From Gaiellaceae bacterium (lineage in GTDB: Bacteria > Actinomycetota > Thermoleophilia > Gaiellales > Gaiellaceae): a stretch of DNA of 41,751 bases. The stretch covers positions 1 to 41,751 of the forward strand of contig JBGPLW010000001.1 in NCBI GenBank assembly GCA_041486645.1, given 5' to 3'. Below the pieces are notes generated by a model. The model was not told where the DNA came from, did not search any database, and was given only the letters and a program-made list of their open reading frames with translations. Of this stretch, positions 1 through 18,373 are shown one piece after another (position 1 is the first letter of the stretch; each line of letters opens with the position of its first letter). Position numbers and translations under genes: made by a program.

Positions 1-234
1 ATCACGCTGCAGGACATCTTCGCCGCCAAGCCGCCGGACGAGGAGCACAATCCGACCGGCGGCCGGTCGCGCCTGCTCTCGCCGCTGCAGTGCACGGGCC
101 TCAAGCCGCAGTTCCTCGAGAAGCTCGCCGCCAACGGCGTCGTTCTCCCGCCGAGCTTCTTCGGTCAGGAGGAGAACCCAGAGGCGCCGCGCTCGGCGTT
201 CTCGGCGACGAGCTTCGAAGGTGCATTCGAGTGA
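1..234 (+). CDS. 3' end of a CpaF/TadA-type pilus-assembly ATPase, truncated by the window edge
   Basis: Frame 1 is open from nt 1 to TGA at 232-234 (ITLQDIFAAK...LQCTGLKPQFLEKLAANGVVLP...). This tail resembles CpaF C-termini. The stop overlaps the ATG of the next gene (GTGATG), which belongs to a TadB/TadC platform pair. It is absent from the ORF track because it has no start in the window. Confidence 0.55.
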   Translation: MTLQDIFAAKPPDEEHNPTGGRSRLLSPLQCTGLKPQFLEKLAANGVVLPPSFFGQEENPEAPRSAFSATSFEGAFE

Positions 235-2093
235 TGCGCCGAGCCGTCACGGCGGTTGTCGTCGCACTCGCGCTCGTTCCCGTTGCCTCTGCCGCCTCGC
301 CGGTCAAGATCGCCGGAACCGACACAGCCGGCTACCCGCGCCTTGTCGTCAACGTCGTCACCGCGAGCCCGGCGGCGACTGCGCCGCGGCTGCGGGAGGA
401 CGGTGTGCCCGCCTCGGGCCTCGACGCCGTCAACCTCGGAGCGGCGAAGAGCGTCGTGGTGGCGATCGACAACTCGCAGTCGATGAAGGGCAAGTCGATC
501 GTCGACGCGGCTGCAGCTGCCCGCGCCTTCGTCGACGCGAAGGCTCCGGGAGATCGCGTCTCGGTCTTCTCCTTCGGCCGGCACACCCTTCAGCTGACGG
601 GCTTCTCGGCGTCGTCCGCCGAGGCCGACGGCGTGCTCCAGGGGCTGGCCGTCGACAGCAGCCCGGGAACGGCGCTGTACGACGGTGTCGTCGCGGCGGC
701 GAAGGCGCTGAGCGCGTCCACTCAGCCCGGCCGCGTGATCATCGTCCTCACCGACGGACGCGACGTGTCGAGCTCAGCCACGCTCGAGGCAGCCGTCGCT
801 GCCGCGCGAAGCGCTGATGCGTCGATCTACCCGATTGGGATCGAGAGCTCCGACTTCGATCCCGGCGCGCTTCGCACGCTGGCCGGTGAAACCGGCGGCA
901 CGTACCACGGCGCCGGGTCGACCGCTCAGTTGCAAGGCGTGTACGCGTCGATCGCCTCGGAGCTCGATCGAACCTGGCGCCTCGGCTATGTCACGTCGGC
1001 GCGCCCGGGCGATCGCGTCCGCCTTCGCGTCACCGTCGCCGGAGTGGGCGCGACCGAGGAGTCGCTCGCGGTGCCGGTGGCCTTCGGCCAGGCGGTCGAC
1101 GTTCCGCCGTCGCGCGCTCTGCCGGCGGTCGTCTACACGCCGGTTGGGACGGTTGCTCTCGGCCTGCTCGTGGGCGCGCTCGTCGCCGGCGCGCTCTTCT
1201 CCCTGACACGGATCCGGCGGCGGAACTGGGTGCAGCAGCGGCTCGCCCCGCACGTCGTCCAGACGGTGCAGCGCGGGAATCAGGCGGACCGGCTCTCGTT
1301 CCTGAAAGCGCTCTTCCGCGCGACGGAGGGAGCGTTCGGCCGGCATGCGAAGTGGCGCTCGATCGAGCGGATGCTCGTGCGCGGCGGCGTGCCGCTTCGT
1401 CCGGCGGAGTTCGTGTGGCTGATGATCGGGTGCGGCGTCGGAGCGGGACTGCTCTTCGGTGCTGCCGGCGCACCGGCGCTGCTCACGCTCGTCGCGTTGG
1501 GGGTCGGCGGCTTTCTTCCATACGGGTTCGTCGCCTACCGCGTGCGGCGCCGCGTCAAGGCGTTCGAGGAGCAGCTTCCGGACATCTTGACGACGATCGC
1601 AGCGACGTTGAAGGCCGGCCACTCGTTCAAGCACGGCCTGCAGGCAGTGCTCGACGAGGCGCAGCCGCCCGCCAGTGACGAGTTGAGGCGCGTGCTCACG
1701 GAGGCCGGCCTCGGTCGCCCGCTCGACGACGCGCTCGGCGACATGGCAGACCGCATCGGCTCGGAGAACTTTGGTTTTGCGATCACGGCCGTGACGATCC
1801 AGCGGCAGGTCGGTGGATCGCTCGCGACGCTCTTCGACATGGTCTCCGAGACTGTGCGAAACCGGCAGCAGTTCGCGCGCAAGATCCGCTCGCTGACCGC
1901 GATGGGGCGCATGTCGGCGTACACGCTCGTCGGTGTCCCCTTCTTCATCGCCGGGATCGTGTCGCTGATGAATCCCGAGTACATGCGGCCCCTCTTTCAT
2001 ACGTCTGCCGGCCACCTCCTGCTCTTCGCCGGGATCGGAATGATCGGTGTCGGCTCCTTGGTCCTGAAAAAGATCGTCTCCTTCAGAGGGTGA
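234..2093 (+). CDS. Fusion protein: signal peptide + extracytoplasmic von Willebrand factor A domain + TM + TadB-like T2SS-F platform domain
   Basis: ATG at 234 overlaps the upstream stop and gives a signal peptide MRRAVTAVVVALALVPVASAAS. VWA MIDAS motif DNSQSM (DxSxS) and downstream LTDGRD are present. A TM lies at ~aa 300-330. The C-terminal half matches the TadB/GspF pattern (LPDILTTIAATLKAGHSF...RKIRSLTAMGRMSAYTL). Confidence 0.85.
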   Translation: MRRAVTAVVVALALVPVASAASPVKIAGTDTAGYPRLVVNVVTASPAATAPRLREDGVPASGLDAVNLGAAKSVVVAIDNSQSMKGKSIVDAAAAARAFVDAKAPGDRVSVFSFGRHTLQLTGFSASSAEADGVLQGLAVDSSPGTALYDGVVAAAKALSASTQPGRVIIVLTDGRDVSSSATLEAAVAAARSADASIYPIGIESSDFDPGALRTLAGETGGTYHGAGSTAQLQGVYASIASELDRTWRLGYVTSARPGDRVRLRVTVAGVGATEESLAVPVAFGQAVDVPPSRALPAVVYTPVGTVALGLLVGALVAGALFSLTRIRRRNWVQQRLAPHVVQTVQRGNQADRLSFLKALFRATEGAFGRHAKWRSIERMLVRGGVPLRPAEFVWLMIGCGVGAGLLFGAAGAPALLTLVALGVGGFLPYGFVAYRVRRRVKAFEEQLPDILTTIAATLKAGHSFKHGLQAVLDEAQPPASDELRRVLTEAGLGRPLDDALGDMADRIGSENFGFAITAVTIQRQVGGSLATLFDMVSETVRNRQQFARKIRSLTAMGRMSAYTLVGVPFFIAGIVSLMNPEYMRPLFHTSAGHLLLFAGIGMIGVGSLVLKKIVSFRG

Positions 2094-2097
2094 GCAC

Positions 2098-3006
2098 ATG
2101 CTGCTTCTGATCATCGCCTCCGCCTGCTTCGCCGGCTCCGTGTACGTCCTCGGCCAGGTTGCGACGCAGCCCGAGCGCGAGCGGCGCTCACTGGTGCGGC
2201 GAGCCGCGCATTACGGCGCCGTCCGCACCGCCGCCTCTCGCGAAGAGCGGCTCTCGCTGCGCGAGCGCGTCGTGGTGCCCGCAGCGGCGCGGATCGCGCA
2301 GGCGATGCTGCGACTGAACCGCCGCGAGAATCTCGAGCAGGTGCAGCAGCGCTTGCTCGCCGCCGGCCTCAGCTCGGTGTCGCCGAGCAGCTTCCTCGCG
2401 ACGAAGGCTCTGCTCGCCGTCGGCGGCGGTCTCTTCGGCCTGGTGATCTGGGTCGGGACCGGAAGCGCCATGGGTTTCCTGATGCTCGTCGGCACGGCCG
2501 GGATCGGCTACATGGCCCCGAGCTTCGTCGTCGGCTCGCGCGTCCGCCGGCGCCGTGACGCCGTGCAGGCCGCCCTTCCGGACGCACTCGATCTCCTCGC
2601 AGTCAGCGTCGAGGCAGGACTCGGCTTCGACGCCGCGATCTCGAAGCTGGTCGAGCACATGGACGGGCCTCTGATCGACGAGTTCGGTCTCGCACTCAGC
2701 GAGATGCGCGTCGGTGAGGCGCGGCAGGACGCGCTGAAGAAGCTGTCGGCGCGCATCGACTCGCCGGAGCTCGGAGCGTTCGTGCGCGCGATCATCCAGG
2801 CAGACCAGCTCGGCATCTCACTCGGGCGCATCCTGCGCGTGCAGGCCGTCGACTCGCGCCTGAAGCGGCAGACCGCCGCCGAGGAGAAGGCGATGAAAGC
2901 GCCGATCAAGATGCTGTTCCCGACCGTCGTCTTCATCTTCCCGGCGATGTTCATCGTCATTCTCGGGCCGGCAATGCTCAACCTCGCGAAGGTCTTCAAG
3001 CTCTGA
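2098..3006 (+). CDS. tadC: TadC-like type II secretion system F-family platform protein
   Basis: Starts 4 nt after the upstream stop. N-terminal TM. T2SS-F pattern LPDALDLLAVSVEAGLGFDAAI...RLKRQTAAEEKAMKAPIKMLFP, followed by a terminal TM. Confidence 0.85.
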   Translation: MLLLIIASACFAGSVYVLGQVATQPERERRSLVRRAAHYGAVRTAASREERLSLRERVVVPAAARIAQAMLRLNRRENLEQVQQRLLAAGLSSVSPSSFLATKALLAVGGGLFGLVIWVGTGSAMGFLMLVGTAGIGYMAPSFVVGSRVRRRRDAVQAALPDALDLLAVSVEAGLGFDAAISKLVEHMDGPLIDEFGLALSEMRVGEARQDALKKLSARIDSPELGAFVRAIIQADQLGISLGRILRVQAVDSRLKRQTAAEEKAMKAPIKMLFPTVVFIFPAMFIVILGPAMLNLAKVFKL

Positions 3007-7252: not shown

Positions 7253-7999
7253 GTGAACGCGCGTCCGCCGTCGACGGTTCCCGAGGTGATCGCGCGGCTG
7301 CGTGCCCTCGAATCGTCGCCCTCGCGTTCCGACGGCGTTGCCTGCTTTGCACGGCTCTATCGCGAGGTGACCGAAGGCGTCGCCGCAGAGCTCGGTCGGC
7401 ACACCTTCGCGAACGGCCGCTTCCTGAAACGCCTCGACGTCTGCTTCGCGAGCTTGTTCTTCACTGCGCTCGACGAGTACGAGCGAGCGCCCGCAAGCGC
7501 GCCGCGCGCGTGGTTGCCCCTGTTCGCGCAGCGATCGAGGAAAGGGGTGGCGCCGCTGCAGTTCGCCCTGGCGGGAATGAACGCGCACATCAACCGCGAC
7601 CTGCCGGTCGCACTCGTCGCCACCTGTCGCGAGCTCGGGATCGACTTACGTGACGGATCGCCGGAACAGGGGGACTTCGAGCGGGTGAACGGCCTGCTGG
7701 CGGGGGTCGAGGCGCGCGTCAAGCGATCGTATGTCACAGGGTGGCTCTCGATTGCCGACCGGCTCGTGCATCGCTTTCACCGCATCGACGACGTGATCGC
7801 GATGTGGGACGTCGAACGGGCGCGCGCTGCAGCCTGGACGAACGGGATTGCGCTCTGGAAGCTGCGCGACGACCCGGAGCTGACGGCGAGCTTTCTCCTC
7901 AAGCTCGACCGCATGGTCGGTCTCGCAAGCCGCGGCTTCATGATTCCTGCGGACACGACGCTCCAGAGGCTCGGTCGCTTCTTCGCGAGGCGAGCCTAG
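7253..7999 (+). CDS. Hypothetical protein, possibly DUF5995-like
   Basis: 248-aa ORF with GTG start. The motif LQFALAGMNAHINRDLP recalls DUF5995 proteins, but this is from memory and not verified. Confidence 0.55.
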   Translation: MNARPPSTVPEVIARLRALESSPSRSDGVACFARLYREVTEGVAAELGRHTFANGRFLKRLDVCFASLFFTALDEYERAPASAPRAWLPLFAQRSRKGVAPLQFALAGMNAHINRDLPVALVATCRELGIDLRDGSPEQGDFERVNGLLAGVEARVKRSYVTGWLSIADRLVHRFHRIDDVIAMWDVERARAAAWTNGIALWKLRDDPELTASFLLKLDRMVGLASRGFMIPADTTLQRLGRFFARRA

Positions 8000-8616
8000 G
8001 CTCGCGGAAGCGCCGGCTGTCCGGGCGCCGGCGCACCGACCGGTTCCTCGCCGCTGATGTTCATGCGCACGAGCGCCGCCACGACGAGGAGCCCGACGCA
8101 GACGCCGATGACCCCTCCGATCGCTCGCGGCCGCGCGGCGTCGAGGGCACGCAGCGCGCCCCACGACACGAGGTAGCCCCAGCCCGCGAGTGCGGCGCCG
8201 TAGACGAGGGAAAGCCCGCGGTCGTGACCGACCTCGACGCCGAGGAGATGCCTGCTCCGATCGGGACGCTCGCTGTAGAGCCCTCCCGGCCCGGACGCAT
8301 CGAACGCCGAGATCAGCTCGAGCTCGCGCTCGACGGCCTTCGCGCGCCTCGTCGCGTACTCGTAGAGCTGTGTGTTGCGCAGCTCGTAGAGCAGGACTCC
8401 CAGCGTCGCGCAGAGCCCGAGCAATCCCACGCCGAGCAGCTCGTCCGCGCTCCGCGGCCGGCCGAGCAACCCGATGGCCGTTCCACTGACCGTCGGCACG
8501 AGTGCGAGCAGCTTGAAGCGGACGTCGGTCAACGTTCGCAGCTCATCGAGCGTGTGGTCGTAGTCAAGGCGTAGCCGGTCGCTGCGGCTGAGCCCGCTTG
8601 CGTCGCCGGTCGTCAT
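7996..8616 (-). CDS. 206-aa predicted 4-TM membrane protein, uncharacterised
   Basis: The ATG at 8616 overlaps the upstream gene's stop (ATGA, 8613-8616). Order of elements: N-terminal helix LDYDHTLDELRTLTDVRF, a TM hairpin, the charged helix YELRNTQLYEYATRRAKAVERELE, then a second TM hairpin. The ORF-track extension to 9252 is Arg-rich shadow. Confidence 0.65.
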   Translation of the reverse strand: MTTGDASGLSRSDRLRLDYDHTLDELRTLTDVRFKLLALVPTVSGTAIGLLGRPRSADELLGVGLLGLCATLGVLLYELRNTQLYEYATRRAKAVERELELISAFDASGPGGLYSERPDRSRHLLGVEVGHDRGLSLVYGAALAGWGYLVSWGALRALDAARPRAIGGVIGVCVGLLVVAALVRMNISGEEPVGAPAPGQPALPRA

Positions 8617-9626
8617 GTGGGCTTGGCGGCAGCTTGCGGCACAGCCGCGGCGAGTGTGTCCTGCGCCCAGCGCTCGCTGAAGCCGGCGAGGAAGCTCACG
8701 ACTAGCAGCGCAAGACGGCGGTCGTTGCTCGACTCGGCGGCGGCAACCGGGAGGTGCAGCAGCCCGCCGGTGAACGCGAACGAGATGGCGAGGGCGAACG
8801 CACCGCCGATCAGCGGCCGCAGCCCGCCGAGGAAGAACGCGTACGGCCGCCCGCAGTCGTAGTCGAGCGTGAACTTTCCGGCGTTGATGCGCTGGATGAC
8901 GCTGACGACCCCGCCGAGAGCGCCGGCGACGAGCGCCGCGACCGGGCCAGCCCAAACGATCGCCAGCCAGATCGCCGCGCCGATCGAGATTGCGATTGCG
9001 ACCGTGGCCATGCCGAGGAAGTAGACGATCTGCGCCTGGCCGTTTGCGGCCTCGCGGTAGTACTGCTCGGCCTGCCCGAGCGCCTCGCGCTCCCGCTGGA
9101 GCGCCTCGGCTGTCTTCGCGGCATCGGCGTGGGACGCGCGTGCGTCGACGAGGCTCAGGAGGTGCGCCGCCGACGCCATCACGAGCTGCATGCAGATCAG
9201 CCGCCGGACACCCATGAGCACGGTGCGCGCGCGTACTGCGAGCTCGTCGCAACGGTGCAGCTCGCAGGCGATGTCCGGCGAGTTCTGAGTCGCCCAGTCA
9301 CTCTCGCGGTGGAACTCGGAGCTCGGCGTCGCCCATGGCCTTGCGCGCCTCTTGTGCGTCGTCAGAGCGACCGCGCTCTCGACGTGCGAGCACCAGTAGG
9401 CGCTGACGATCTCGCCGTGGCGCCGCTCGAAGCCGGCGAGCGCGTCGTGGTACGCGACCTTGGTGGCGCTCGACACGTGGTCGTCTCGGAAGGCCCGCCA
9501 CCAATCGAAGTGCGCGTAGACGAGCTCGGAAAAGGTCGTCGAATGCGAAGCGCCGGCGGACTCGCGGAGTGCCACCTTCGGCTCTGCTGTCGGTGCTGCG
9601 GCAAGCGGCTGCGTCAACTCGGTCAC
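8613..9626 (-). CDS. 337-aa uncharacterised membrane protein, paralog 1: ~200-aa soluble N-domain + coiled coil + 4 TM
   Basis: GTG at 9626 is preceded by GGGAGG (5-nt spacing). It is homologous along its length to the 12896-13945 product. Shared motifs: IV.AYWC, H.E(S/T)DW, LI.MQ, G.LRP.IG..FA and VSFLAGFSERWA. Confidence 0.8.
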   Translation of the reverse strand: MTELTQPLAAAPTAEPKVALRESAGASHSTTFSELVYAHFDWWRAFRDDHVSSATKVAYHDALAGFERRHGEIVSAYWCSHVESAVALTTHKRRARPWATPSSEFHRESDWATQNSPDIACELHRCDELAVRARTVLMGVRRLICMQLVMASAAHLLSLVDARASHADAAKTAEALQREREALGQAEQYYREAANGQAQIVYFLGMATVAIAISIGAAIWLAIVWAGPVAALVAGALGGVVSVIQRINAGKFTLDYDCGRPYAFFLGGLRPLIGGAFALAISFAFTGGLLHLPVAAAESSNDRRLALLVVSFLAGFSERWAQDTLAAAVPQAAAKPT

Positions 9627-9666
9627 GTCGACCTCCCGTCAGCCGCAGCCAGCGATCTCGCAGAGC

Positions 9667-9690
9667 GTACGCCCTCGCCGCAGGGCGTAC
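9667..9690. promoter_or_regulatory. Perfect 9-bp inverted repeat (candidate operator) in the divergent promoter region between paralog 1 and the patatin gene
   Basis: gtacgccct-cgccgc-agggcgtac, in the 147-bp intergenic region 9627-9773. Confidence 0.4.
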
Positions 9691-9773
9691 AAGACCTTGC
9701 CGCGCGTGGCCCGACGGAGTAGCGTCGAGCGAGCGAACGGAGCCTGCGGCCTCCCAGCACGAGAGGAGACTGC

Positions 9774-12050
9774 ATGGCGACGGCCACTACGACAGCACCG
9801 TCTGCACCGGCGACCGCCGCGTCCCGGCCGCCCGATCTGCCGAGCGACCACGACGTCCGGGAGCTCCGGCTTGCGCTCGTCTGCTACGGCGGCGTTTCCC
9901 TCGCGATCTACATGCACGGCATCACGAAGGAGCTCGAGAAGCTCGCCCGCGCCTCGGCGAAGCTGCTCGAGCCGGGCAACGACAACCCATACCCGCCCGA
10001 CAAGACCGAGCACGCGTACTACAACGCGCTTCGCCGCAAGGCGGCGGCCGACGGCTTCCGCACGCGCGTCGTCATCGACATCATCTCCGGCACGTCGGCG
10101 GGCGGGATCAACGGCGTGTGCCTGGCGAAGGCGCTCGCACTCGACGCACCACAGGACGGTCTGCGCGATCTCTGGCTGACGAAGGGCGCGATCCTCAAGC
10201 TGCTCTCGCGCTGGCCGACGCTGCCGCCGCTCGCCGGGAACCGGATGCTGAAGTGGCTCGGCGGCGCGTTCAGCGAGATGGACGGACATGGGCAGGGATC
10301 GCTGATGCCGCCGGGCCTGGCGTTGAATCTGTTCGTCACGACCACGGACATCAACGGCTACAACCGGCAGATCCCGATCGCCGACCCGCCGGCGATCAAC
10401 ACCGTCGTCAACAAGCACGTGTTCGAGTTCCTCCACCGTGACGGCGTGGGCAATCTCGACAGCACGCACAACCCGGCGCTCGCCTTCGCCGCACGTGCGA
10501 CGTCGTGCTTCCCAGGCGCGTTTCCCGCGACGGCGCTCGCGGACATCCAGCATCAGGAGTCGCGCGAGAGTTTCCCGACGGAGTTCTGCCGCGTCTACGA
10601 GCTCGCCGACTCACCGGTCGACATGACGTTCTTCGTCGACGGCGGGGTGCTCGACAACTTTCCGTTCCGGCATGCAGTTCGCGCGATCGCGGGCAAGCCC
10701 GCCGCGACGCAGGTCGACCGCAGGCTCCTCTTCATTGAGCCGGACCCTGCCGCGCCAGGCCAGAGCCCGAACGGCGCGACGCCAGGGTTCCGCGCGACGG
10801 TGTGGGCGGGGCTGTCGAAGCTGCCGCGCCGCCAGCCGATCGGCGATGCGCTCGACGAGCTCATGCAGTACAACCGGCGCGTTCTCCGGGTCAAGCAGAT
10901 GATCGGCGCGGTCGAGGACGACGTCCTCGCGACGGTCGAGCCCCTGCTCGGCCTCGGCTACGACACTGCGAACCAGGCCACGAACACCGGCGCCATCAAG
11001 TCGAGCGGCTTCAGCTTTCGGGCGTACCTCGGGCTCAAGTTGCTGTCGGTCGTGGAGGGCATCGCCACTTCGGTCTCGCGGGTCATGGACTATCCACCGA
11101 CGTCCACACAGACCCTCTTCGTCCGCCGCGCGCTGCTCACGTGGGCCGACGGCGCGAACTTGCTCGCGACGAATAACGAGCTCAGCGACGCCCAGATGAG
11201 CTTCCTCCGGACATTCGATCTCGGCTACGGACGCCGCCGGCTGGCGTTCGTCATCGGCCGCTTGGGCCACTATTACGACGCCGGCGCCGATCGCGAGCTG
11301 CTGAACACGCTCAAGCACCGCCTCTACGAGCTCGTCTCGGAGCTGCAGGTCGTGCTCGAGCGCCCCGAAGCCGCCTTCCTCCATAGCTCGGTCGAGCAGA
11401 TCTTCGGCGTGCAGCGGCTGCAGCCGTACCTCGCACGCTGGCAGACAGCGGAGTTCCTGGACAGCGCGAAAGCGGAGATCGACGACCTCCGTACTGTGCT
11501 CGGGACATATCTCGACCAGGCGCTGGCGGGCTTCGGCGAGCGCGCCTACGCCGAGCTCGAGCGGCTCACCGCCGAGCTGCCGGCTGAGAGCCGAGACGAC
11601 CTTCGGGCGCGCTACCTCGGGTTCCCCTACTGGGATGCGACGACGTATCCGGTGCGGATGCTCAGCGACGTGGCCGAACTCGACGAGGTCAAGGTCGTCC
11701 GCGTGAGCCCACTCGACACGCACCGGCTCTCGGAGCCCGGGCAGGGAGCCGTGCCGAGCGCAAAGGCGAAGCTGCGTGGTGTGGCGCTCGGACACTTCGG
11801 GGCGTTCTTCCGGCGCAGCTGGCGGGAGAACGACTATCTGTGGGGGCGGCTCGACGGTGCCGAGCGGCTCCTGTGGCTGATCGGCGACACGGGCGACGTC
11901 GCCGCGAAGGAAGCGTTCGCGGCGATCGCCGCGGAAGAGGGGCCGAAGCTCCGCAAGGCGGGGGCGTTGATCCGCCGCGCCGAGAAATACGCAAACGGGG
12001 ATCTTGACGAGGCGCCGCTCTCGGCGGATCATCGGCTGACACCCATATAG
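9774..12050 (+). CDS. Patatin-like phospholipase with a long C-terminal extension (DUF3376 / TIGR03607-type architecture)
   Basis: RBS GAGAGGAG lies upstream of the ATG. Motifs present: oxyanion-region LVCYGGVSLAIYMHG, nucleophile elbow SGTSAGGING (GxSxG) and catalytic Asp motif FVDGGVLDNFP. The C-terminal WRENDYLWGRLDGAERL is typical of the DUF3376 tail. Confidence 0.9.
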   Translation: MATATTTAPSAPATAASRPPDLPSDHDVRELRLALVCYGGVSLAIYMHGITKELEKLARASAKLLEPGNDNPYPPDKTEHAYYNALRRKAAADGFRTRVVIDIISGTSAGGINGVCLAKALALDAPQDGLRDLWLTKGAILKLLSRWPTLPPLAGNRMLKWLGGAFSEMDGHGQGSLMPPGLALNLFVTTTDINGYNRQIPIADPPAINTVVNKHVFEFLHRDGVGNLDSTHNPALAFAARATSCFPGAFPATALADIQHQESRESFPTEFCRVYELADSPVDMTFFVDGGVLDNFPFRHAVRAIAGKPAATQVDRRLLFIEPDPAAPGQSPNGATPGFRATVWAGLSKLPRRQPIGDALDELMQYNRRVLRVKQMIGAVEDDVLATVEPLLGLGYDTANQATNTGAIKSSGFSFRAYLGLKLLSVVEGIATSVSRVMDYPPTSTQTLFVRRALLTWADGANLLATNNELSDAQMSFLRTFDLGYGRRRLAFVIGRLGHYYDAGADRELLNTLKHRLYELVSELQVVLERPEAAFLHSSVEQIFGVQRLQPYLARWQTAEFLDSAKAEIDDLRTVLGTYLDQALAGFGERAYAELERLTAELPAESRDDLRARYLGFPYWDATTYPVRMLSDVAELDEVKVVRVSPLDTHRLSEPGQGAVPSAKAKLRGVALGHFGAFFRRSWRENDYLWGRLDGAERLLWLIGDTGDVAAKEAFAAIAAEEGPKLRKAGALIRRAEKYANGDLDEAPLSADHRLTPI

Positions 12051-12079: not shown

Positions 12080-12889
12080 ATGGCCGTCATGGCTATTCCG
12101 TTTGTGCAGGCGCGCAACTTCACGCGGGGCCGGTCGAACGCGATCGACGTCCTCGTGATTCACACGATGGAGTCGCCGGAGAAGCCCGATACGGCGGAGA
12201 GCGTGGCGCACTGGTTCGCGGGCTCTACCGCCCCGCAGGCATCGGCGCATTACTGCATCGACGACAACTCGGTCGTCCAGTGCGTCCGCGACGAGGACGT
12301 CGCCTGGCACGCGCCGGGCGCGAACCACAACGGCCTCGGCTTCGAGCACGCCGGCCGGGCGGCGCAAACCAAGAGCGACTGGAGCGACGAGTACTCGACG
12401 AAGTGCCTGGAGCTGTCGGCGCAGCTCGTCGCGGAGAAGTGCACGGAGCATCACATCCCCGTCGTGTGGCTCCAGCCGGCGGACCTTCGCGCCGGCAGGC
12501 GCGGCATCACGGGTCACGTTCAGGTGTCGGACGCGTTCAAACGCTCGGACCACAGGGATCCGGGCACACAGTTCCCGGTCGAGGCGTATCTCGAGCTCGT
12601 GCGCGCCAAGATGGGCGAGTCGCACGTTCCGGAGCACGTGCACCGTGCGCGCGACAAGGCGCCCGAGCAGGACCCGACGCTCGAGGAAGGCTCGAAGGGG
12701 TATCAGGTGAAGCGCTTTCAGCGCCTGCTCGCGGACCACCACTTCGATCCCGGCGTGGTCGACGGCATCTTCGGGCCGGCGACGAAGAAGGCGGTCGTGA
12801 AGGCGCAGAAGGCGCACGGCCTGAACGCGAACGGCATCGCGAGCGCCATGACCTGGCATGCCCTTGTTGCGTCCGAGACGAAGACCTAG
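12080..12889 (+). CDS. N-acetylmuramoyl-L-alanine amidase (Amidase_2/PGRP fold) + C-terminal PG_binding_1 domain, with no signal peptide; endolysin-like
   Basis: Lies 29 nt after the patatin stop, with RBS GGAGG. Amidase_2 pattern: VLVIHTMES...HYCID...AWHAPGANHNGLGFEHAG...ITGHVQVS...DHRDPG. PG-binding repeat: GYQVKRFQRLLADHHFDPGVVDGIFGPATKKAVVKAQKAHGL. The N-terminus MAVMAIPFVQARNF is not a signal peptide. Confidence 0.88.
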   Translation: MAVMAIPFVQARNFTRGRSNAIDVLVIHTMESPEKPDTAESVAHWFAGSTAPQASAHYCIDDNSVVQCVRDEDVAWHAPGANHNGLGFEHAGRAAQTKSDWSDEYSTKCLELSAQLVAEKCTEHHIPVVWLQPADLRAGRRGITGHVQVSDAFKRSDHRDPGTQFPVEAYLELVRAKMGESHVPEHVHRARDKAPEQDPTLEEGSKGYQVKRFQRLLADHHFDPGVVDGIFGPATKKAVVKAQKAHGLNANGIASAMTWHALVASETKT

Positions 12890-12895
12890 GCGTCC

Positions 12896-13945
12896 TCAGG
12901 CTTCTTTGGGCTCGGCGTCGTCGGCCCCGCCGGTTTTGTGGAGCATCAGGCGTGCCCAGCGCTCGCTGAAGCCCGCGAGGAACGACACGATCGCGTAGAA
13001 GTAAATCGTCTTCTGCTCCGTGCCGAGCTGGACGAGGTTGCTCGCAAAACCGAAGTACAGGGCGACCGCGAAGGTGGCGCCGATGAAAGGCCGGAGGCTG
13101 CCGAGCCGGCGAACCATCTTGCGGCCGACCTCATGATCGACGGAGAATGCGCCCTTGCCGGCCATGCGTGACATGACACTGATGATCGCGCCGGCTCCGC
13201 CCATCGCCGCCGCAAGGAACAAGGCCTGCGTCGTCGGCGAGTGCCAGCGTGAGAAGTGGGTTGCGTAGAGGACGAGTGCAATGACGGCAACAAGGCCGCC
13301 GAGCAAAGCCCCCCCGCGCATCATTCCCTGGAAGTAGACGAGACGTGCCTGAGCCTCCGCCGCCTTGTTGTGGTACGCGAGGATCTGCGCGAGCTCCTTC
13401 TGATTTGCTGTGACGACACGCGCAACGTCTTTCTCGTCGGGCGGCTGCTCTGACTGGTCGATGAAGCCGAGCACCCGCTCGACCGCAGAGACGAGCCACT
13501 GCATCGCGATCAGCTCGCTCGTGCCGCGCAGAACCTCACCGATCTTCACCGCGAGCGCCCGGCTCGCATACACCTGATCGGCGATCTCCGGGCACTCGCC
13601 TGTGATCCAGTCAGTCTCGGAGTGGAAGTACACGACCTGCCGCGTGAACCAGAGCCGGCGCCAGGAACGCTCGGTCGTCTCCGTCACTGCAACACCGGAC
13701 GGCTGGCGCGTGCACCAGTACGCCTCCACAATGCGGCCGTTCGCGGCGATGAATGCCTTCAGCTTCGCCTGGTAGGTGTCCTCCCGCGGCCCGCCGTACT
13801 CGCGGTTCTTGTAGACCGCGAGCTGGCGGAGGTAATGCACGAGCACGAGCTCTGCGAACGGGACGACCTCGGGCGGCGGCTTTCGGCGCCAGAGGAAGGC
13901 CTCCCGCAGCCACCCGAACGTCGACGGATGTGCGTAGTCGCCCAC
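12896..13945 (-). CDS. 349-aa uncharacterised membrane protein, paralog 2 of the 8613-9626 product
   Basis: GTG start at 13945; an in-frame stop lies just upstream. Same architecture and motifs as paralog 1. A 20-nt identical stretch, gcccagcgctcgctgaagcc (12954-12973 vs 8665-8684), encodes GFSERWA. Confidence 0.8.
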   Translation of the reverse strand: MGDYAHPSTFGWLREAFLWRRKPPPEVVPFAELVLVHYLRQLAVYKNREYGGPREDTYQAKLKAFIAANGRIVEAYWCTRQPSGVAVTETTERSWRRLWFTRQVVYFHSETDWITGECPEIADQVYASRALAVKIGEVLRGTSELIAMQWLVSAVERVLGFIDQSEQPPDEKDVARVVTANQKELAQILAYHNKAAEAQARLVYFQGMMRGGALLGGLVAVIALVLYATHFSRWHSPTTQALFLAAAMGGAGAIISVMSRMAGKGAFSVDHEVGRKMVRRLGSLRPFIGATFAVALYFGFASNLVQLGTEQKTIYFYAIVSFLAGFSERWARLMLHKTGGADDAEPKEA

Positions 13946-14156
13946 CGCGCCGGCCTAGCGATCGTCTGGGGTTCTGGTGCGAACGGCCATGCGGATCCCT
14001 TCGTGGGGGTGCCACAGCCTTCGCCGCAGGCGACAGACGGTACTCCTCGGTTTCGGGCGGTGCAACCTGTCCGCAGCCAGCGCTGGGACGGGAGGAATCA
14101 ACCTGGGACGAATCGTCCCTGGGTCAGCCCTATCTCCGGCTGCAACAATTGCCGCT

Positions 14157-14993
14157 GTGAGCGACGACTTCGGTGCATTCCTTCGTTCTCGGCGGGCCCG
14201 GCTCCGCCCGGAGGACGTCGGCTTCGCCCCCGGCCGTAGCCGGCGCGTCCCCGGCCTGCGACGGGAGGAGGTTGCGGCGCTCGCCTCCGTGAGCGTCGAC
14301 TACATCAGCCGCCTGGAGCAGGGGCGGATCAGCCCGTCCGAGGCCGTGCTCCACTCGCTCGCCCGCGCGCTCCGGCTCGACGCCGCGGAGCGCGTGCACA
14401 TGTTCGCGCTCGCCTGCCGAACGCCCGGGGCCGAGGACATCGAGCTGCTGGACGAGGTCCGCCCGGGCCTTCTCCGGCTGCTGGAGGCCGTCGAACCGCT
14501 GCCCGCCTATGTGCTCGGGCGGTCGCTCGATCTCCTCGCCTGGAACGCGACCGCGTCCGTCCTGCTCGGCGACCTCGAGCGGAAGCTTCTGATCGAGCGG
14601 AATCTCGGGCGGCTGATCTTCCTCGACGCCGAGTTCAGAGCGCTGGTGGGGCCGCCCGAGCGCTTCGGGGCGGACGTCGTCGCCGCGTTGCGCGTCGCGC
14701 AGACTCGGCATCAGCGCGACCCGCGCGTCGAGGCGCTCATCGGTGAGCTCGCCGAGCGCTCGTCCGTGTTCCGCGTGTTGTGGGAGGAGCATCCCGTCGC
14801 GACGCAGGCGCACGGGCGCAGCACCTTCGACCATCCGGACGTCGGGTGTCTCGAGCTCGAGTGGGAGCGGCTGACCGTGCCCGGCGCCGGTGGACAGGCC
14901 GTGATGGTCTACAGCGCTGAGCCCGGCACGCCTGCGGCCACCGCGCTGACCTTGTTGGGGACGCTTGCTGCAACTGCCGCGCACGCCCGTTGA
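14157..14993 (+). CDS. XRE-type HTH regulator with MmyB-like ligand-binding domain
   Basis: The GTG at 14157 gives VSDDFGAFLRSRRARLRPEDVGF..RRVPGLRREEVAALASVSVDYISRLEQGR..PS..VL..LARALRL, the canonical MmyB-family N-terminus. The upstream part of the track ORF (from 13977) looks non-coding. Confidence 0.8.
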   Translation: MSDDFGAFLRSRRARLRPEDVGFAPGRSRRVPGLRREEVAALASVSVDYISRLEQGRISPSEAVLHSLARALRLDAAERVHMFALACRTPGAEDIELLDEVRPGLLRLLEAVEPLPAYVLGRSLDLLAWNATASVLLGDLERKLLIERNLGRLIFLDAEFRALVGPPERFGADVVAALRVAQTRHQRDPRVEALIGELAERSSVFRVLWEEHPVATQAHGRSTFDHPDVGCLELEWERLTVPGAGGQAVMVYSAEPGTPAATALTLLGTLAATAAHAR

Positions 14994-15492: not shown

Positions 15493-16278
15493 TCAGAACG
15501 GGACGGCTCCCTTGCCCTTCCAGGCTGCAAGCTTCAGCAGCACGCCGCGTGGGACAGCGGAGCCGGAGAGCACGCAGGTTCGGCCGCCGCGAAGCCACGT
15601 GACGACGAGACGTCCGTGCACGGTGAAGGTGTGTAGCTCGGTGCCGTTGCGCTCGACGAGGGTTGTCCCGCGCGGAACGCGGAGTGCGGCCCCGTCGATG
15701 ATCGTGTAGCCGATTCGGTGGCCTTCTTTTCCGTAGAAGACCGTCCCCGTTCGGCGTCCCCCAAGCGTGTCGGTTCGCATCCCGGTCGCCTTCCAGCCGA
15801 ACTTCGTCTCCCAGTTCGGGAACGCGACTCCTCCGATGGCGTGCGCGAGCAGCTTCGGCTGCGCGGGCTGTGGTGTCGGCGGAGCACCGGTCGCCGCGCG
15901 GCCCGAGAGCTGCGCGGCCGCCGCGAGGCTCGGGCCGCCCGCGCCGCCGGGTAGCACGAGGAAGAGTGCGAGCGCCGTTACGGCAGCAACCGCCAGCCCC
16001 GTCCCGAGCTGGGTCCGGCGACGGCGGGGAGAGCGCCGCTCGGCGCCGATGCGAGCCCGAAGGCCCGACGGAGCCTCGACCGTTGCGCTCACGCTGCGGA
16101 CGAGGGTGAGGGCGCACTCCTGCTCGGCAAGCCGAGCGGCGAGCTCGGGCGACGCCGCAACCGACGCCTCGACCGCTGCCTGGCGCTCCGGCGCCAGCGA
16201 ACCGTCGGCGAGCGCAGCGAGCTCGATCGGTTCGTCGTCAGGTGCTTCGGCGCTTCTCCGGTTCTTCAGTAAGAACAC
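15493..16278 (-). CDS. Putative membrane-spanning anti-sigma factor (no zinc-finger Cys motif)
   Basis: N-terminal LAALADGSLAPERQAAVEASVAASPELAARLAEQ resembles anti-sigma N-domains. There is a single TM (GTGLAVAAVTALALFLVL) and an extracytoplasmic beta-rich C-domain. The GTG start at 16278 is chosen; 16389 is possible. Confidence 0.6.
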   Translation of the reverse strand: MFLLKNRRSAEAPDDEPIELAALADGSLAPERQAAVEASVAASPELAARLAEQECALTLVRSVSATVEAPSGLRARIGAERRSPRRRRTQLGTGLAVAAVTALALFLVLPGGAGGPSLAAAAQLSGRAATGAPPTPQPAQPKLLAHAIGGVAFPNWETKFGWKATGMRTDTLGGRRTGTVFYGKEGHRIGYTIIDGAALRVPRGTTLVERNGTELHTFTVHGRLVVTWLRGGRTCVLSGSAVPRGVLLKLAAWKGKGAVPF

Positions 16279-16339
16279 CTCGATCGCAAATGATGCCGCG
16301 GGCCCGCAGTTTATTCCCGGAGATCGTCGCGGTCGCGCG

Positions 16340-16364
16340 GGAATATCCGCGGCCGAGCGGAGTC
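16340..16364 (+). promoter_or_regulatory. Possible ECF-type promoter (GGAAT-N17-GTC) upstream of the RTX-like gene
   Basis: GGAATA at 16340-16345 and GTC at 16362-16364, about 45 nt upstream of ATG 16409. The GGAATA is one arm of an 8-bp inverted repeat, tattcccg (16312-16319) / cgggaata (16338-16345). Confidence 0.3.
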
Positions 16365-16408
16365 CTTGTGCAGGACGGAAGACATCCACTCATGAGGAGA
16401 CATGCGAA

Positions 16409-18373
16409 ATGCGTTGGCACAAGCACATCCTGATCGGCGCGGCCGTGGTGTTCGTTGCGGCTGCGACGGCCGGGCCCACGTTCGCTTCGGCGAAGAAGGA
16501 CAAAGTCAAGGCGAAAGTTCAGAACGGCACCCTCACGGTCACCGGATCGACTGGGAACGACGTCATCACCTTGCGACTGGCCGCGGGCGACCCGACGACG
16601 CTCGAGGTCGAGGCCGACGGCAAGAAGTCGGAGGAGCTCAGCTTCAAGCGCAGCAGGTTCGACGCGATCGTCGTCGATGCGGGAGGCGGTGACGACACCG
16701 TCTCGATCGACGAGAGCAACGGCGTCTTCACGGACACGGAGGCGACGACGCTCGACGGCGGCGACGGCAACGACACGCTCCGTGGCGGCTCCTTCGCCGA
16801 GACCTTGATCGGCGGCGCCGGCAACGACACGGTCGACGGGAATCGCGGCAGTGACACGGCGTTCCTGGGCGCGGGCGACGACACGTTCGTCTGGGACCCG
16901 GGCGACGGTAGCGACGTGGTCGAGGGTCAGGCGGGTAGCGACACGATGCTGTTCAACGGCTCCAATGCGGGCGAGCACATCGATCTGTCCGCGAACGGGT
17001 CGCGGTTGCGGCTGTTCCGTGATGTCGCGAACATCACGATGGACACGAACGGTGTCGAGACCGTCGATGTCAACGCGCGCGGCGGCGCCGACACGCTGAC
17101 CGTGAACGATCTGAGCGGGACGGACGTGACGAGCGTCAAGACTGACCTCGGCGTGAACGGCGGCGGCGACGGCTCGGCCGACCAGGTGATCGTCAACGGC
17201 ACGGCGGCGGCCGACCGCGTGCAGATCGCTTCGGCGGGCGGCGAGACGGAGGTCTCCGGGCTCGCGGCGACCGTTGCCGTGTCAAACGCGGAGGCGTCGG
17301 ACACGCTGGCCGTCAACGGCCTCGCCGGCGATGACCGGATCGCGTCCGAGGCTGCTCAGCCGCTGGCGGTGCAGATCGACGGCGGCGACGGCGTCGACAC
17401 CGCGGTCGCGCAGGGCTCGAACGCGAACGACACGATCCAGGTTGCAGCCGCGGCTCCGGCCGTGCGCGTCTTCTCGATCGGTGCTGCCGGTTTCGTACAG
17501 GCGCAGGCCGAAGACCTCGTGGTCAGCGGTCTCGCCGGCGACGACTCGATCAGCGCCGGCAACGGCCTCGCGGGTCTCGCCGCGCTGACGATCGACGGCG
17601 GCGACGGCAACGACACGATCGCGGGCGGTGACGGTGCCGACCTGCTGATCGGCGGCGCCGGCAACGACACGGTCGACGGCAACCGCGGCAGTGACACGGC
17701 GTTCCTCGGTGCGGGCGACGACACGTTCGTCTGGGATCCGGGCGACGGCAGCGACGTCGTCGAGGGCCAGGCAGGGAACGACACGATGCTGTTCAACGGC
17801 TCGAACGCGGGCGAGAAGATCGACCTGTCCGCGAACGGCTCACGGCTGCGCCTGTTCCGTGACGTCGGGAACATCACGATGGACACGAACGGCGTCGAGA
17901 CCGTTGATGTCAACCTGCTCGGCGGTGCCGACACGCTGACCGTGCACGACCTCAGTGGAACCGACGTGACGAGCGTCAAGACCGACCTCGCAGTGAACGG
18001 CGGCGGCGACGGCTCGTCCGATCAGGTGGTTGTCGACGGCACGAACGGCAACGACGCGATCACCGTCGCCGGGAGCAACGGCTCGGCGACCGTGTCCGGT
18101 CTCGCGGCCGGCGTCACGATCACCGGTGCCGAGCCCAGCCTCGACGGCCTCACGGTCAATGCGCTCGGAGGCGACGACGCGGTCACCGCATCCGCTCTTG
18201 CGGCGAACGCGCTCAAGCTCACCGTCGACGGTGGCGACGGAGCCGATGTGCTGGTCGGCGGCGCGGGTGACGACGTGCTGCTCGGCGGCGCGGGCGACGA
18301 CATCCTCATCGGCGGGCCGGGGCTCGACACGCTCGACGGCGGTCCCGGGGCCAACATCCTGATCCAGGACTGA
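16409..18373 (+). CDS. Secreted calcium-binding protein with RTX/hemolysin-type Gly-Asp repeats
   Basis: RBS AGGAGA lies 8 nt upstream of the ATG. Signal peptide: MRWHKHILIGAAVVFVAAATAGPTFASA. There are many GGxGxD-type repeats (GGDGNDTL, GGAGNDTVDG, GGAGDDVLLGGAGDDILIGGPGLDTLDGG). The upstream 642 nt of the track ORF is antisense to the anti-sigma gene. Confidence 0.88.
   Translation: MRWHKHILIGAAVVFVAAATAGPTFASAKKDKVKAKVQNGTLTVTGSTGNDVITLRLAAGDPTTLEVEADGKKSEELSFKRSRFDAIVVDAGGGDDTVSIDESNGVFTDTEATTLDGGDGNDTLRGGSFAETLIGGAGNDTVDGNRGSDTAFLGAGDDTFVWDPGDGSDVVEGQAGSDTMLFNGSNAGEHIDLSANGSRLRLFRDVANITMDTNGVETVDVNARGGADTLTVNDLSGTDVTSVKTDLGVNGGGDGSADQVIVNGTAAADRVQIASAGGETEVSGLAATVAVSNAEASDTLAVNGLAGDDRIASEAAQPLAVQIDGGDGVDTAVAQGSNANDTIQVAAAAPAVRVFSIGAAGFVQAQAEDLVVSGLAGDDSISAGNGLAGLAALTIDGGDGNDTIAGGDGADLLIGGAGNDTVDGNRGSDTAFLGAGDDTFVWDPGDGSDVVEGQAGNDTMLFNGSNAGEKIDLSANGSRLRLFRDVGNITMDTNGVETVDVNLLGGADTLTVHDLSGTDVTSVKTDLAVNGGGDGSSDQVVVDGTNGNDAITVAGSNGSATVSGLAAGVTITGAEPSLDGLTVNALGGDDAVTASALAANALKLTVDGGDGADVLVGGAGDDVLLGGAGDDILIGGPGLDTLDGGPGANILIQD
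16752..17205 (+). repeat. Copy 1 of an intragenic direct repeat (~450 nt, offset exactly 840 nt)
   Basis: Aligns colinearly with 17592-18045. By eye it is about nine-tenths identical, with long exact runs such as gatcggcggcgccggcaacgacacggtcgacgg and acatcacgatggacacgaacgg. Confidence 0.85.
17592..18045 (+). repeat. Copy 2 of the intragenic direct repeat
   Basis: See copy 1. It encodes LIGGAGNDTVDGNRGSDTAFLGAGDDTFVWDPGDGSDVVEGQAG.DTMLFNGSNAGE.IDLSANGSRLRLFRDV.NITMDTNGVETVDVN in both copies. Confidence 0.85.

Follow-up and report, generated by a model that had tools for sequence, protein, structure and literature searches.

Described systems related to the locus

The kind of system that the present family most resembles is already known: a membrane component that accompanies lytic enzymes devoid of a leader, or a STAND switch that bears a membrane module. 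We analyzed a stretch of 41,751 nucleotides (nt) from a Gaiellaceae bacterium (GenBank assembly GCA_041486645.1, contig JBGPLW010000001.1, positions 1 to 41,751 of the forward strand), hereafter 'the window', in which two open reading frames (ORFs), A and B, encode divergent members of an uncharted membrane-protein family on either side of a patatin and an amidase gene. Bacteria of the Thermoleophilia (Gaiellales, Solirubrobacterales) are frequent in metagenomes of soils and sediments, almost uncultured, and their cell biology is little known. Short of holding it probable, we favour the reading that the family is a regulated, holin-like membrane-breaching module, which would give leaderless enzymes access to the envelope, for lysis or enzyme release.

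In type 10 secretion, a holin and an endolysin release leaderless cargo; TcdE, ChiW/ChiX and the Yersinia entomophaga lysis cassette are described cases (PMC10847048, PMC10109510, PMC10516005). The locus has in common with these and with holin/endolysin cassettes a membrane protein beside an endolysin-type hydrolase and a leaderless cargo, and with type 10 secretion, in addition, a cassette that is chromosomal and not phage-borne. Wall hydrolase and leaderless cargo lie in one locus here (amidase and patatin), and from the genes alone lysis or enzyme release would be expected. Among the marks of a phage holin, adjacency to an endolysin is found, whereas small size (<~150 aa), a match to a holin family and a phage or prophage cassette are not. 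The family protein has no sequence or fold similarity to holins, is two to three times larger than they are, and carries a cytoplasmic domain of 195 aa. Moreover, unlike the genes of holin cassettes, family genes are often divergent from or convergent with the enzyme genes.

CidA and LrgA are holin-like proteins with four transmembrane (TM) segments that control murein-hydrolase activity and cell death. The family resembles them in its four membrane helices, its paralogous pairs, and a tie to wall-hydrolase activity and cell death. Cid/Lrg proteins, however, have no cytoplasmic domain, and the LrgA family (PF03788) was matched by neither A nor B and was not among the top families listed for 109 family members.

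Membrane effectors of conflict systems form a third group (two-TM SLATT proteins, TM effectors of CBASS and Pycsar, STAND-linked effectors; PMC7159879, PMC8195603). What is shared here is a membrane module that stands alone or is fused to a nucleoside triphosphatase (NTPase), and adjacency to SIR2, patatin and peptidases. The family differs in that no SLATT or PADLOC model matched it, in the C-terminal position of its module in the STAND protein, and in that, where it stands alone, it is encoded by conserved genes of the chromosome and not by patchily distributed genes of islands. Finally, the leaderless protease and intracellular inhibitor pairs of the protealysin-emfourin and C1-chagasin (I42) operons (PMC9505478) are the same as those found directly downstream of family genes; these operons were described without a membrane partner, whereas here a family gene is present and shares an overlap with the gene of the protease or inhibitor. 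A literature search for a named system uniting all these parts found none.

A membrane-protein family new to the searched libraries

ORF A (8613..9626, minus strand, 337 aa) belongs to what we call the A-clade of the family, and ORF B (12896..13945, minus strand, 349 aa) is its B-clade paralog. A preliminary description, made from the sequence alone, had presented the two as divergent paralogs of an unrecognised family, aligning end to end with an identity of about a third. This holds: BLASTP aligned them over 312 aa, almost their full length, with E 2e-42, 32% identity and 49% positives, and every motif listed in that description was located in both proteins. The segment VSFLAGFSERWA is invariant between A (residues 310-321) and B (residues 320-331). 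In a window of ~70% G+C, both ORFs have the third-position G+C (0.88 for A, 0.85 for B) and the codon-position G+C pattern of real genes, and their predicted N-termini agree with those of their orthologs (MTELT... and MGEYA...).

Sequence searches returned 1148 proteins with A and 248 with B, all named 'hypothetical' if a handful of plainly spurious automatic names is set aside; a precomputed Pfam domain was present in none of them. A family profile was then built from 30 members and searched against representatives of 50% identity clusters; it retrieved 4226 of them at E<=0.001, of which 638 were at E<=1e-30. With one genome kept per species, relatives were encoded at 228 loci (individual loci and proteins are referred to below by L and P numbers). 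The best 80 of these 228 loci all lie in metagenome-assembled genomes (MAGs) of Gaiellaceae, Thermoleophilia or unclassified Actinomycetota. Each comes from a different MAG with one A-type gene, which suggests that A-type genes are orthologs kept in single copy. The locus was seen again in many sediment metagenomes. Two short contigs with A-type genes (L043 and L044, ~61% identical to A) and a DUF5995 gene were assigned to Gemmatimonadaceae and Burkholderiales MAGs, probably through misbinning and not through horizontal transfer.

The status of the family as unrecognised was confirmed, no match reaching threshold in Pfam, NCBIfam, PADLOC, PHROGs or the PDB sequences. In Pfam, A had only a sub-threshold match to DUF2207_C (PF20990; 13.7 bits for a cut-off of 33) and B had none. 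Scans of both proteins against NCBIfam and PHROGs gave no significant match, nor did the PDB sequences, whether searched with a single sequence or with a profile, and the best PADLOC result was LeoBC, for B, at E 0.083. When 109 diverse members were scanned against Pfam at a lax threshold, DUF2207_C was found in 30 (best E 1.6e-4), DUF3792 in 13 and Holin-X in three, none of these matches reaching the curated cut-off. The likeness to DUF2207_C covers the long helix and TM1-TM2 described below; it omits the N-domain and the TM3-TM4 motifs, and DUF2207 is itself uncharacterised. A match of B to the type VI secretion effector BTH_I2691 (E 0.044) was dropped, as it was found for one of 30 members. 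The family and both its folds are new to every library searched, and the family merits a name and a profile model whatever its mechanism.

Architecture and conservation

AlphaFold2, run with the family alignment, gave a confident model (pLDDT 83.9, pTM 0.76). The N-domain of A (residues 28-168; 9123..9545, minus strand) is an alpha/beta domain of ~140 aa, in which two helices are followed by a three-stranded sheet and two long helices; modelled alone, it reached pLDDT 94. The preliminary description had placed a coiled-coil linker after it. A helical connection is indeed modelled there, in the form of one long helix (residues 169-223) that continues directly into TM1, and three more membrane helices follow. 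As members of a family of cytoplasmic-membrane proteins, A and B both have this layout. This four-helix membrane region (residues ~196-328; 8643..9041, minus strand) contains the motifs G..G...SV..R, RP..G and F..GFSER, which are invariant family-wide. Foldseek, which had been suggested at the outset together with AlphaFold, found no structural match for these confident models in PDB or BFVD: the best E-values for the whole model were 1.0 in PDB (ExbB, TM-score <=0.24) and 0.46 in BFVD, and the N-domain alone gave 0.68 at best in PDB. Because the N-domain directly follows a STAND NTPase in some relatives, it must be cytoplasmic.

Conservation was counted over 122 diverse representatives. Nearly all residues conserved in at least 95% of them fall in the membrane part, the N-domain being less conserved. 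Conservation is at least 96% for G235, G238, S242 and R246 in TM2, for R270 and G274 in TM3 (93% for P271), and for F312, G315, F316, E318 and R319 at the end of TM4; this last group shows the strong constraint on the terminal motif that had been anticipated from the A and B sequences. Outside the TM2-TM4 motifs, L137 and G205 also reach the 95% level. The invariant polar residues S242, R246, R270, E318 and R319 lie close to the predicted cytoplasmic ends of TM2-TM4. The cysteine of the YWC motif in the N-domain is not kept family-wide. A catalytic triad Cys79/His106/Asp110 was considered and ruled out, C79 being conserved in less than 70% of representatives and replaced by S, G or A in STAND-fused forms.

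Enzymes encoded next to family genes

The most informative feature of the locus, passed over in the preliminary description, is which genes A and B enclose and which adjoin their relatives. Two enzyme genes, both on the plus strand, sit between A and B in the window. The first, divergent from A, encodes a patatin-like phospholipase of 758 aa (9774..12050; TIGR03607, E 3e-148; Patatin and DUF3376 domains). The second encodes an endolysin-type N-acetylmuramoyl-L-alanine amidase of 269 aa (12080..12889; Amidase_2 and PG_binding_1; match to the endolysin phrog_12609, E 7e-38), and is convergent with B, 6 nt separating the two stop codons. A hydrophobicity scan found no signal peptide on either enzyme, and the bounds of the amidase ORF agree with this. 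The ORF already opens at the first start codon past an upstream stop, and residue 20 is the first of the catalytic domain; with no upstream extension available, a signal peptide is impossible for the amidase.

Neighbours of relatives were examined by ORF calling and clustering at 93 loci, and positional counts were made for 73 non-redundant family genes, using patatins, C1 peptidases, wall hydrolases, phospholipases C (PLC) and M4 peptidases as the enzyme classes. These classes supply 54% of the genes at position +1, 26% at -1 and 31% at +2, compared to 0-4% at four or more genes away; 57 of the 73 family genes have at least one such enzyme within two genes. A C1 peptidase is found at +1 in 25 A-clade loci. 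Co-directional C1 genes overlap the family stop with their start (11 loci), and inverted ones abut the family gene 3' end to 3' end (14 loci). Small patatins account for 34 neighbouring positions. Further recurrent neighbours are large patatins, Amidase_2 proteins, GH25+PG_binding lysozymes, PLC, an animal-type haem peroxidase, a metallo-beta-lactamase-fold protein and DUF5995, the others being chiefly unrelated housekeeping genes, together with two Endonuclease_NS, two CHAP and two further patatin genes. Within the enzyme clusters (C1, M4, PLC and GH25 included), the hydrophobicity scan found no leader, a signal-anchor control cluster scoring 2.7-3.9.

Individual loci illustrate how the partners change. 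In L001, L004 and L005, the family gene is followed by an M4 peptidase and an emfourin gene with overlapping stop and start codons, and an amidohydrolase gene precedes it, as does a PLC gene in L004 and L005. In L003 the order is family gene, I42 inhibitor and C1 peptidase, with PLC farther downstream. A patatin gene precedes the family gene in L008, and in L012 an Amidase_2+PG_binding gene does so at a distance of two small genes. In L094, a CHAP+PG_binding gene is divergent from the family gene, and I42, patatin and PLC genes are close by; in L176, the family gene is followed by an uncharacterised gene, a tyrosinase and an Exo_endo_phos gene. The apparent fusion of a family member to a protealysin propeptide (P0323) was discarded as a frameshifted read-through of adjacent genes.

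Around the constant membrane protein, the variable partners are thus enzymes that break down lipids, proteins, peptidoglycan or nucleic acids. For most of them, the usual site of action of the enzyme family is outside the cytoplasm, yet an export signal is lacking here; the protease genes are accompanied by genes for cytoplasmic inhibitors. Synteny inherited within a single class of bacteria could nevertheless produce such a pattern around a protein of unrelated function, for example in the transport of ions or small molecules or in envelope stress signalling. Every context comes from related uncultured Actinomycetota, the association is diluted in a divergent sample (see below), the conserved buried charges R246, R270, E318 and R319 would also suit a transporter or channel, and the weak recurrent matches to DUF2207_C and DUF3792 are to membrane families. 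No transporter family was matched, however, and synteny does not account well for an enrichment that is so sharply positional and that survives changes of enzyme type, order and orientation between clades only 30-40% identical. We consider this explanation improbable.

An independent soil-metagenome sample provided 80 further loci, all with stand-alone genes, 30-38% identical to the query, many of them on very short contigs. Patatin was again the top Pfam family among the 90 immediate neighbours (5), followed by An_peroxidase and CN_hydrolase (3 each) and M4, PLD (phospholipase D), PG_binding_1 and Exo_endo_phos (2 each). The association with enzymes is general, and diluted in this divergent sample. 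That patatin ranks first among the neighbours in either sample, and that PLC, PLD and An_peroxidase recur, would fit a housekeeping turnover of membrane lipids by phospholipases and a fatty-acid-oxygenating haem peroxidase, to which proteases and wall hydrolases would be incidental; the conservation of the A-clade as a single copy in at least 80 species-level MAGs points the same way. Such a role is hard to believe in, since it leaves unexplained the stop/start overlaps with C1 and M4 genes, the three classes of wall hydrolase, the nucleases and the STAND/SIR2 fusions.

Several minor observations concern these neighbours. Just upstream of A-clade genes, an An_peroxidase of ~600 aa (E 1e-107) and the metallo-beta-lactamase-fold protein recur (L032 3392-5197; L024 6232-6939; also L120, L135 and L156); the combination of peroxidases and lipases hints at a theme of lipid oxidation. 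A protein of ~340 aa, in a cluster of 10 (L076 8058-9095; L012 5053-5619), is encoded between wall hydrolases or patatins and family genes; it has a HELCE motif and no Pfam or PDB match, and may be another hydrolase. At L060 (5111-6481) and four similar loci, a leaderless wall hydrolase consists of an N-terminal region followed by PG_binding_1 and GH25. Its N-terminus bears an SxHxxGxAxD-like motif, M15-like in our reading, and has no Pfam match. The whole resembles actinophage endolysins of the LysA type in a chromosomal context, and in three loci its gene lies 72-82 nt upstream of the family gene.

STAND and SIR2 fusions

At least four divergent representatives (P0321, P0332, P0354 and P0341) carry an N-terminal nSTAND1 NTPase (PF20703) directly followed by the complete family module. 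At both fusion loci for which upstream sequence is available, L093 (2427-5527) and L095 (1-3188), on two divergent soil contigs, a SIR2_2 gene runs 4 nt into the start of the fusion gene. The definition of the nSTAND1 domain stems from predicted counter-invader and cell-death systems (PMC8195603). By its gene content, the L093/L095 pair looks like an undescribed defence-type STAND/SIR2 system with a membrane module. No nSTAND1 NTPase was found in A, B or the scanned genes of the window; the link holds for the family and not for this locus.

These fusions bear on a second possibility, namely that the family is a membrane sensor or activator and forms no conduit. It would sense the state of the membrane or envelope and switch on the adjacent latent enzyme, or the STAND NTPase and SIR2, as the constant half of a two-part defence or cell-death system with swappable effectors. 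A constant partner with interchangeable enzymes is the usual logic of such systems, the fused module holds the C-terminal position where STAND proteins usually have their sensor while a separate SIR2_2 effector gene lies upstream, and the lower conservation of the N-domain relative to the membrane part is in keeping with it. Nevertheless, no ligand-binding or signalling fold was recognised, and leaderless Amidase_2, GH25 and CHAP enzymes would still need a membrane route, which a pure sensor does not give. We regard a sensor without conduit as unlikely, while taking it more seriously than synteny or lipid turnover.

Three distant members show another association (L089 8228-10577; L092 8280-10629 and 14410-15036; L157 2491-2838), in which a PAAR-motif protein is encoded after the family gene. 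In L089 and L092 a Ser/Thr kinase of 665 aa also follows, with a PASTA-repeat protein nearby, and L092 further encodes a P2-type baseplate protein (Tail_P2_I) in the vicinity. A link of the PAAR-associated members to a contractile injection system is possible.

A possible role in membrane breaching

Under the holin-like reading introduced at the start, the family would be the constant membrane part of chromosomal 'lytic-enzyme cassettes'. A cytoplasmic cue would be sensed by the N-domain, or in one branch by the fused STAND NTPase; the membrane bundles would next assemble into a lesion or conduit, and the neighbouring leaderless enzymes would thereby reach substrates in the envelope or outside the cell. 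In the window, the enzymes let through would be the phospholipase of patatin type and the amidase of endolysin type; at other loci they would be papain-like or thermolysin-like proteases with co-encoded inhibitors, wall hydrolases, PLC or PLD lipases, nucleases and oxidases. The outcome would be controlled lysis or cell death, which may be altruistic, or a release of exoenzymes, which may be non-lytic. While paralogy, family size, architecture, conservation, neighbourhoods, the lack of signal peptides and the STAND/SIR2 fusions are observed, it is the trigger, the pore or conduit and the outcome that we infer. We favour this role because leaderless wall hydrolases need a passage through the membrane, for which a holin is the known solution, and because the STAND/SIR2 branch wires the same module into an NTPase-switched, death-type system.

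A number of observations weigh against it. As regards the protein itself, no homology to holins, pore-formers or transporters was found in PHROGs, Pfam, NCBIfam or by Foldseek; the Holin-X matches (best E 0.0049) are sub-threshold and confined to three of the 109 members, those to the uncharacterised DUF2207_C, in 30 of the 109, are sub-threshold as well, and a length of 337-390 aa with a cytoplasmic part of 195 aa is unlike that of classical holins. As regards the neighbourhoods, the loci are phylogenetically related and the neighbour counts therefore non-independent, only about one-fifth of the immediate neighbours in the broad soil sample are recognisably lytic or oxidative enzymes, and in the window neither A (divergent) nor B (convergent) is co-directional with the enzyme genes. 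The leader test was a hydrophobicity scan rather than SignalP or TatP, and is crude. Searches of IMG/VR viral contigs, GenBank phages (INPHARED) and a plasmid collection returned no family relatives, a conserved, single-copy A-clade fits a housekeeping gene more than a defence gene, and the metatranscriptome search gave trivial fragments only, in one run.

A bolder form of the holin-like reading can be envisaged, in which the family is a new-fold 'executioner gate'. A cytoplasmic signal would open the membrane and unleash a co-encoded kit for dismantling the cell, made up of lipases, inhibitor-latent proteases, wall hydrolases, nucleases and oxidases, with NLR-like STAND sensing in one branch; this would be a bacterial counterpart of regulated necrosis. 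We would not bet on this form, to which we give about the same weight as to a pure sensor. If it were true, it would amount to a previously unseen route of lysis or secretion across a whole class of soil Actinomycetota. In its plainer form too, with the family as the gate for leaderless enzymes in the Thermoleophilia, the holin-like reading would establish a new way, holin-like or type-10-like, in which cells lyse or exoenzymes are released. STAND/SIR2 immune-type systems would thereby gain a further membrane module, and the deployment of leaderless protease/inhibitor pairs such as protealysin-emfourin would be accounted for.

History of the A and B genes

The preliminary description took A and B for an old duplication that one locus had kept. 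Its age is borne out, proteins of the A-type and of the B-type falling into distinct clades in many genomes. The second half of the claim was not supported: A and B share a locus only in this species, where B is beside A on three other contigs as well, and in its closest relative, L013 (B 89% and A 85% identical). In L014 and L025 (A 79% and 73% identical), the A-patatin-amidase arrangement is present and B is not, in L019 and L083 the amidase gene is on the opposite side of A, and B-type genes elsewhere are found at different loci, beside enzyme partners of their own. Either A and B were thus brought together recently, or their pairing was retained specifically in this lineage.

This distribution also bears on the idea that A and B were retained together since the duplication as an obligate heteromer, such as a holin/antiholin-like pair. 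Here and in L013, the two genes do enclose the same pair of enzyme genes, and pairs of membrane proteins in which one paralog promotes and the other counters cell death have precedents (Cid/Lrg, Bcl-2; in part PMC8195603). Against this, the pairing is limited to this species and its nearest relative, B is missing from L014 and L025, and most family genes are single at their locus. On these gene arrangements, an obligate heteromer appears unlikely, and is to us the least credible of the alternatives.

The preliminary description had also pointed to a run of 20 nt at 8665..8684, encoding part of the FLAGFSERWA motif, that is repeated at 12954..12973. Both coordinates and identity proved exact, the match having zero further matching bases on either side. 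It consists of six identical codons (GFSERW) and flanking bases. The chance that six such codons all agree under the codon usage of the window is P ~0.034, and the same codon is used at 57% of the identical residues of the A/B alignment; amino-acid constraint and codon bias hence account for the run, and no special explanation is needed. Gene conversion was ruled out as its origin, as the match has no extension and codon bias suffices.

Other features of the locus

Downstream of A, a gene for a hydrophobic protein of 206 aa (7996..8616, minus strand) begins with a start codon that overlaps the A stop by 4 nt (ATGA), and its product is for this reason a likely operon partner of A. The protein has hydrophobic segments at both ends and no match in Pfam, PHROGs or PDB; hhalign ruled it out as a relative of the A/B family. 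Similar genes occur at a few other loci, in a cluster of 6 that includes L013 and L014, and also at L151. The next gene encodes a DUF5995 protein (7253..7999, plus strand), a recurrent neighbour of A-clade genes (cluster of 22 related loci) whose position and orientation vary.

A and the patatin gene are separated by a divergent control region of 147 nt (9627..9773). On the A strand, -35/-10-like boxes of the form TTGTRC-N17-TACGCT are largely kept in six orthologous A/patatin spacers, with a variable -10 box, and likely constitute the promoter of A. A perfect 9-nt inverted repeat (9667-9675/9682-9690) is present in this window only. Close to the patatin start, the blocks CCGCAGG and GACGCTACTC are conserved. 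The heptamer CTGCGGC occurs in four copies around the spacer (9596-9750), once upstream of the amidase gene (12053) and once upstream of B (14023); as a shared regulatory motif it was rejected, being unenriched in the window (32 copies, 24.7 expected) and merely clustered locally.

Divergent from B, a gene for an MmyB-like helix-turn-helix regulator (13977..14993, plus strand) probably starts near 14157 rather than at 13977. It is found beside B in contigs of this species only, and its product is a possible local regulator. The B/regulator spacer contains an imperfect 19-nt palindrome (14093-14131) with a perfect GGGACGA-A-TCGTCCC core, a candidate operator.

Elsewhere in the window the gene content is that of an ordinary chromosome, with genes for, among others, Tad-type T2SSF proteins, EamA, a histidine kinase, DUF2339, an FtsH-like protease and an M48 peptidase; given these genes and the empty phage and plasmid searches, a prophage or plasmid origin of the locus is unsupported. 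Two further stretches may be mentioned. At 90-3006, a VWA domain is fused to a Tad-type T2SSF membrane protein, and a second T2SSF gene follows. At 15767-18373, an 868-aa protein carries RTX calcium-binding repeats at its C-terminus.

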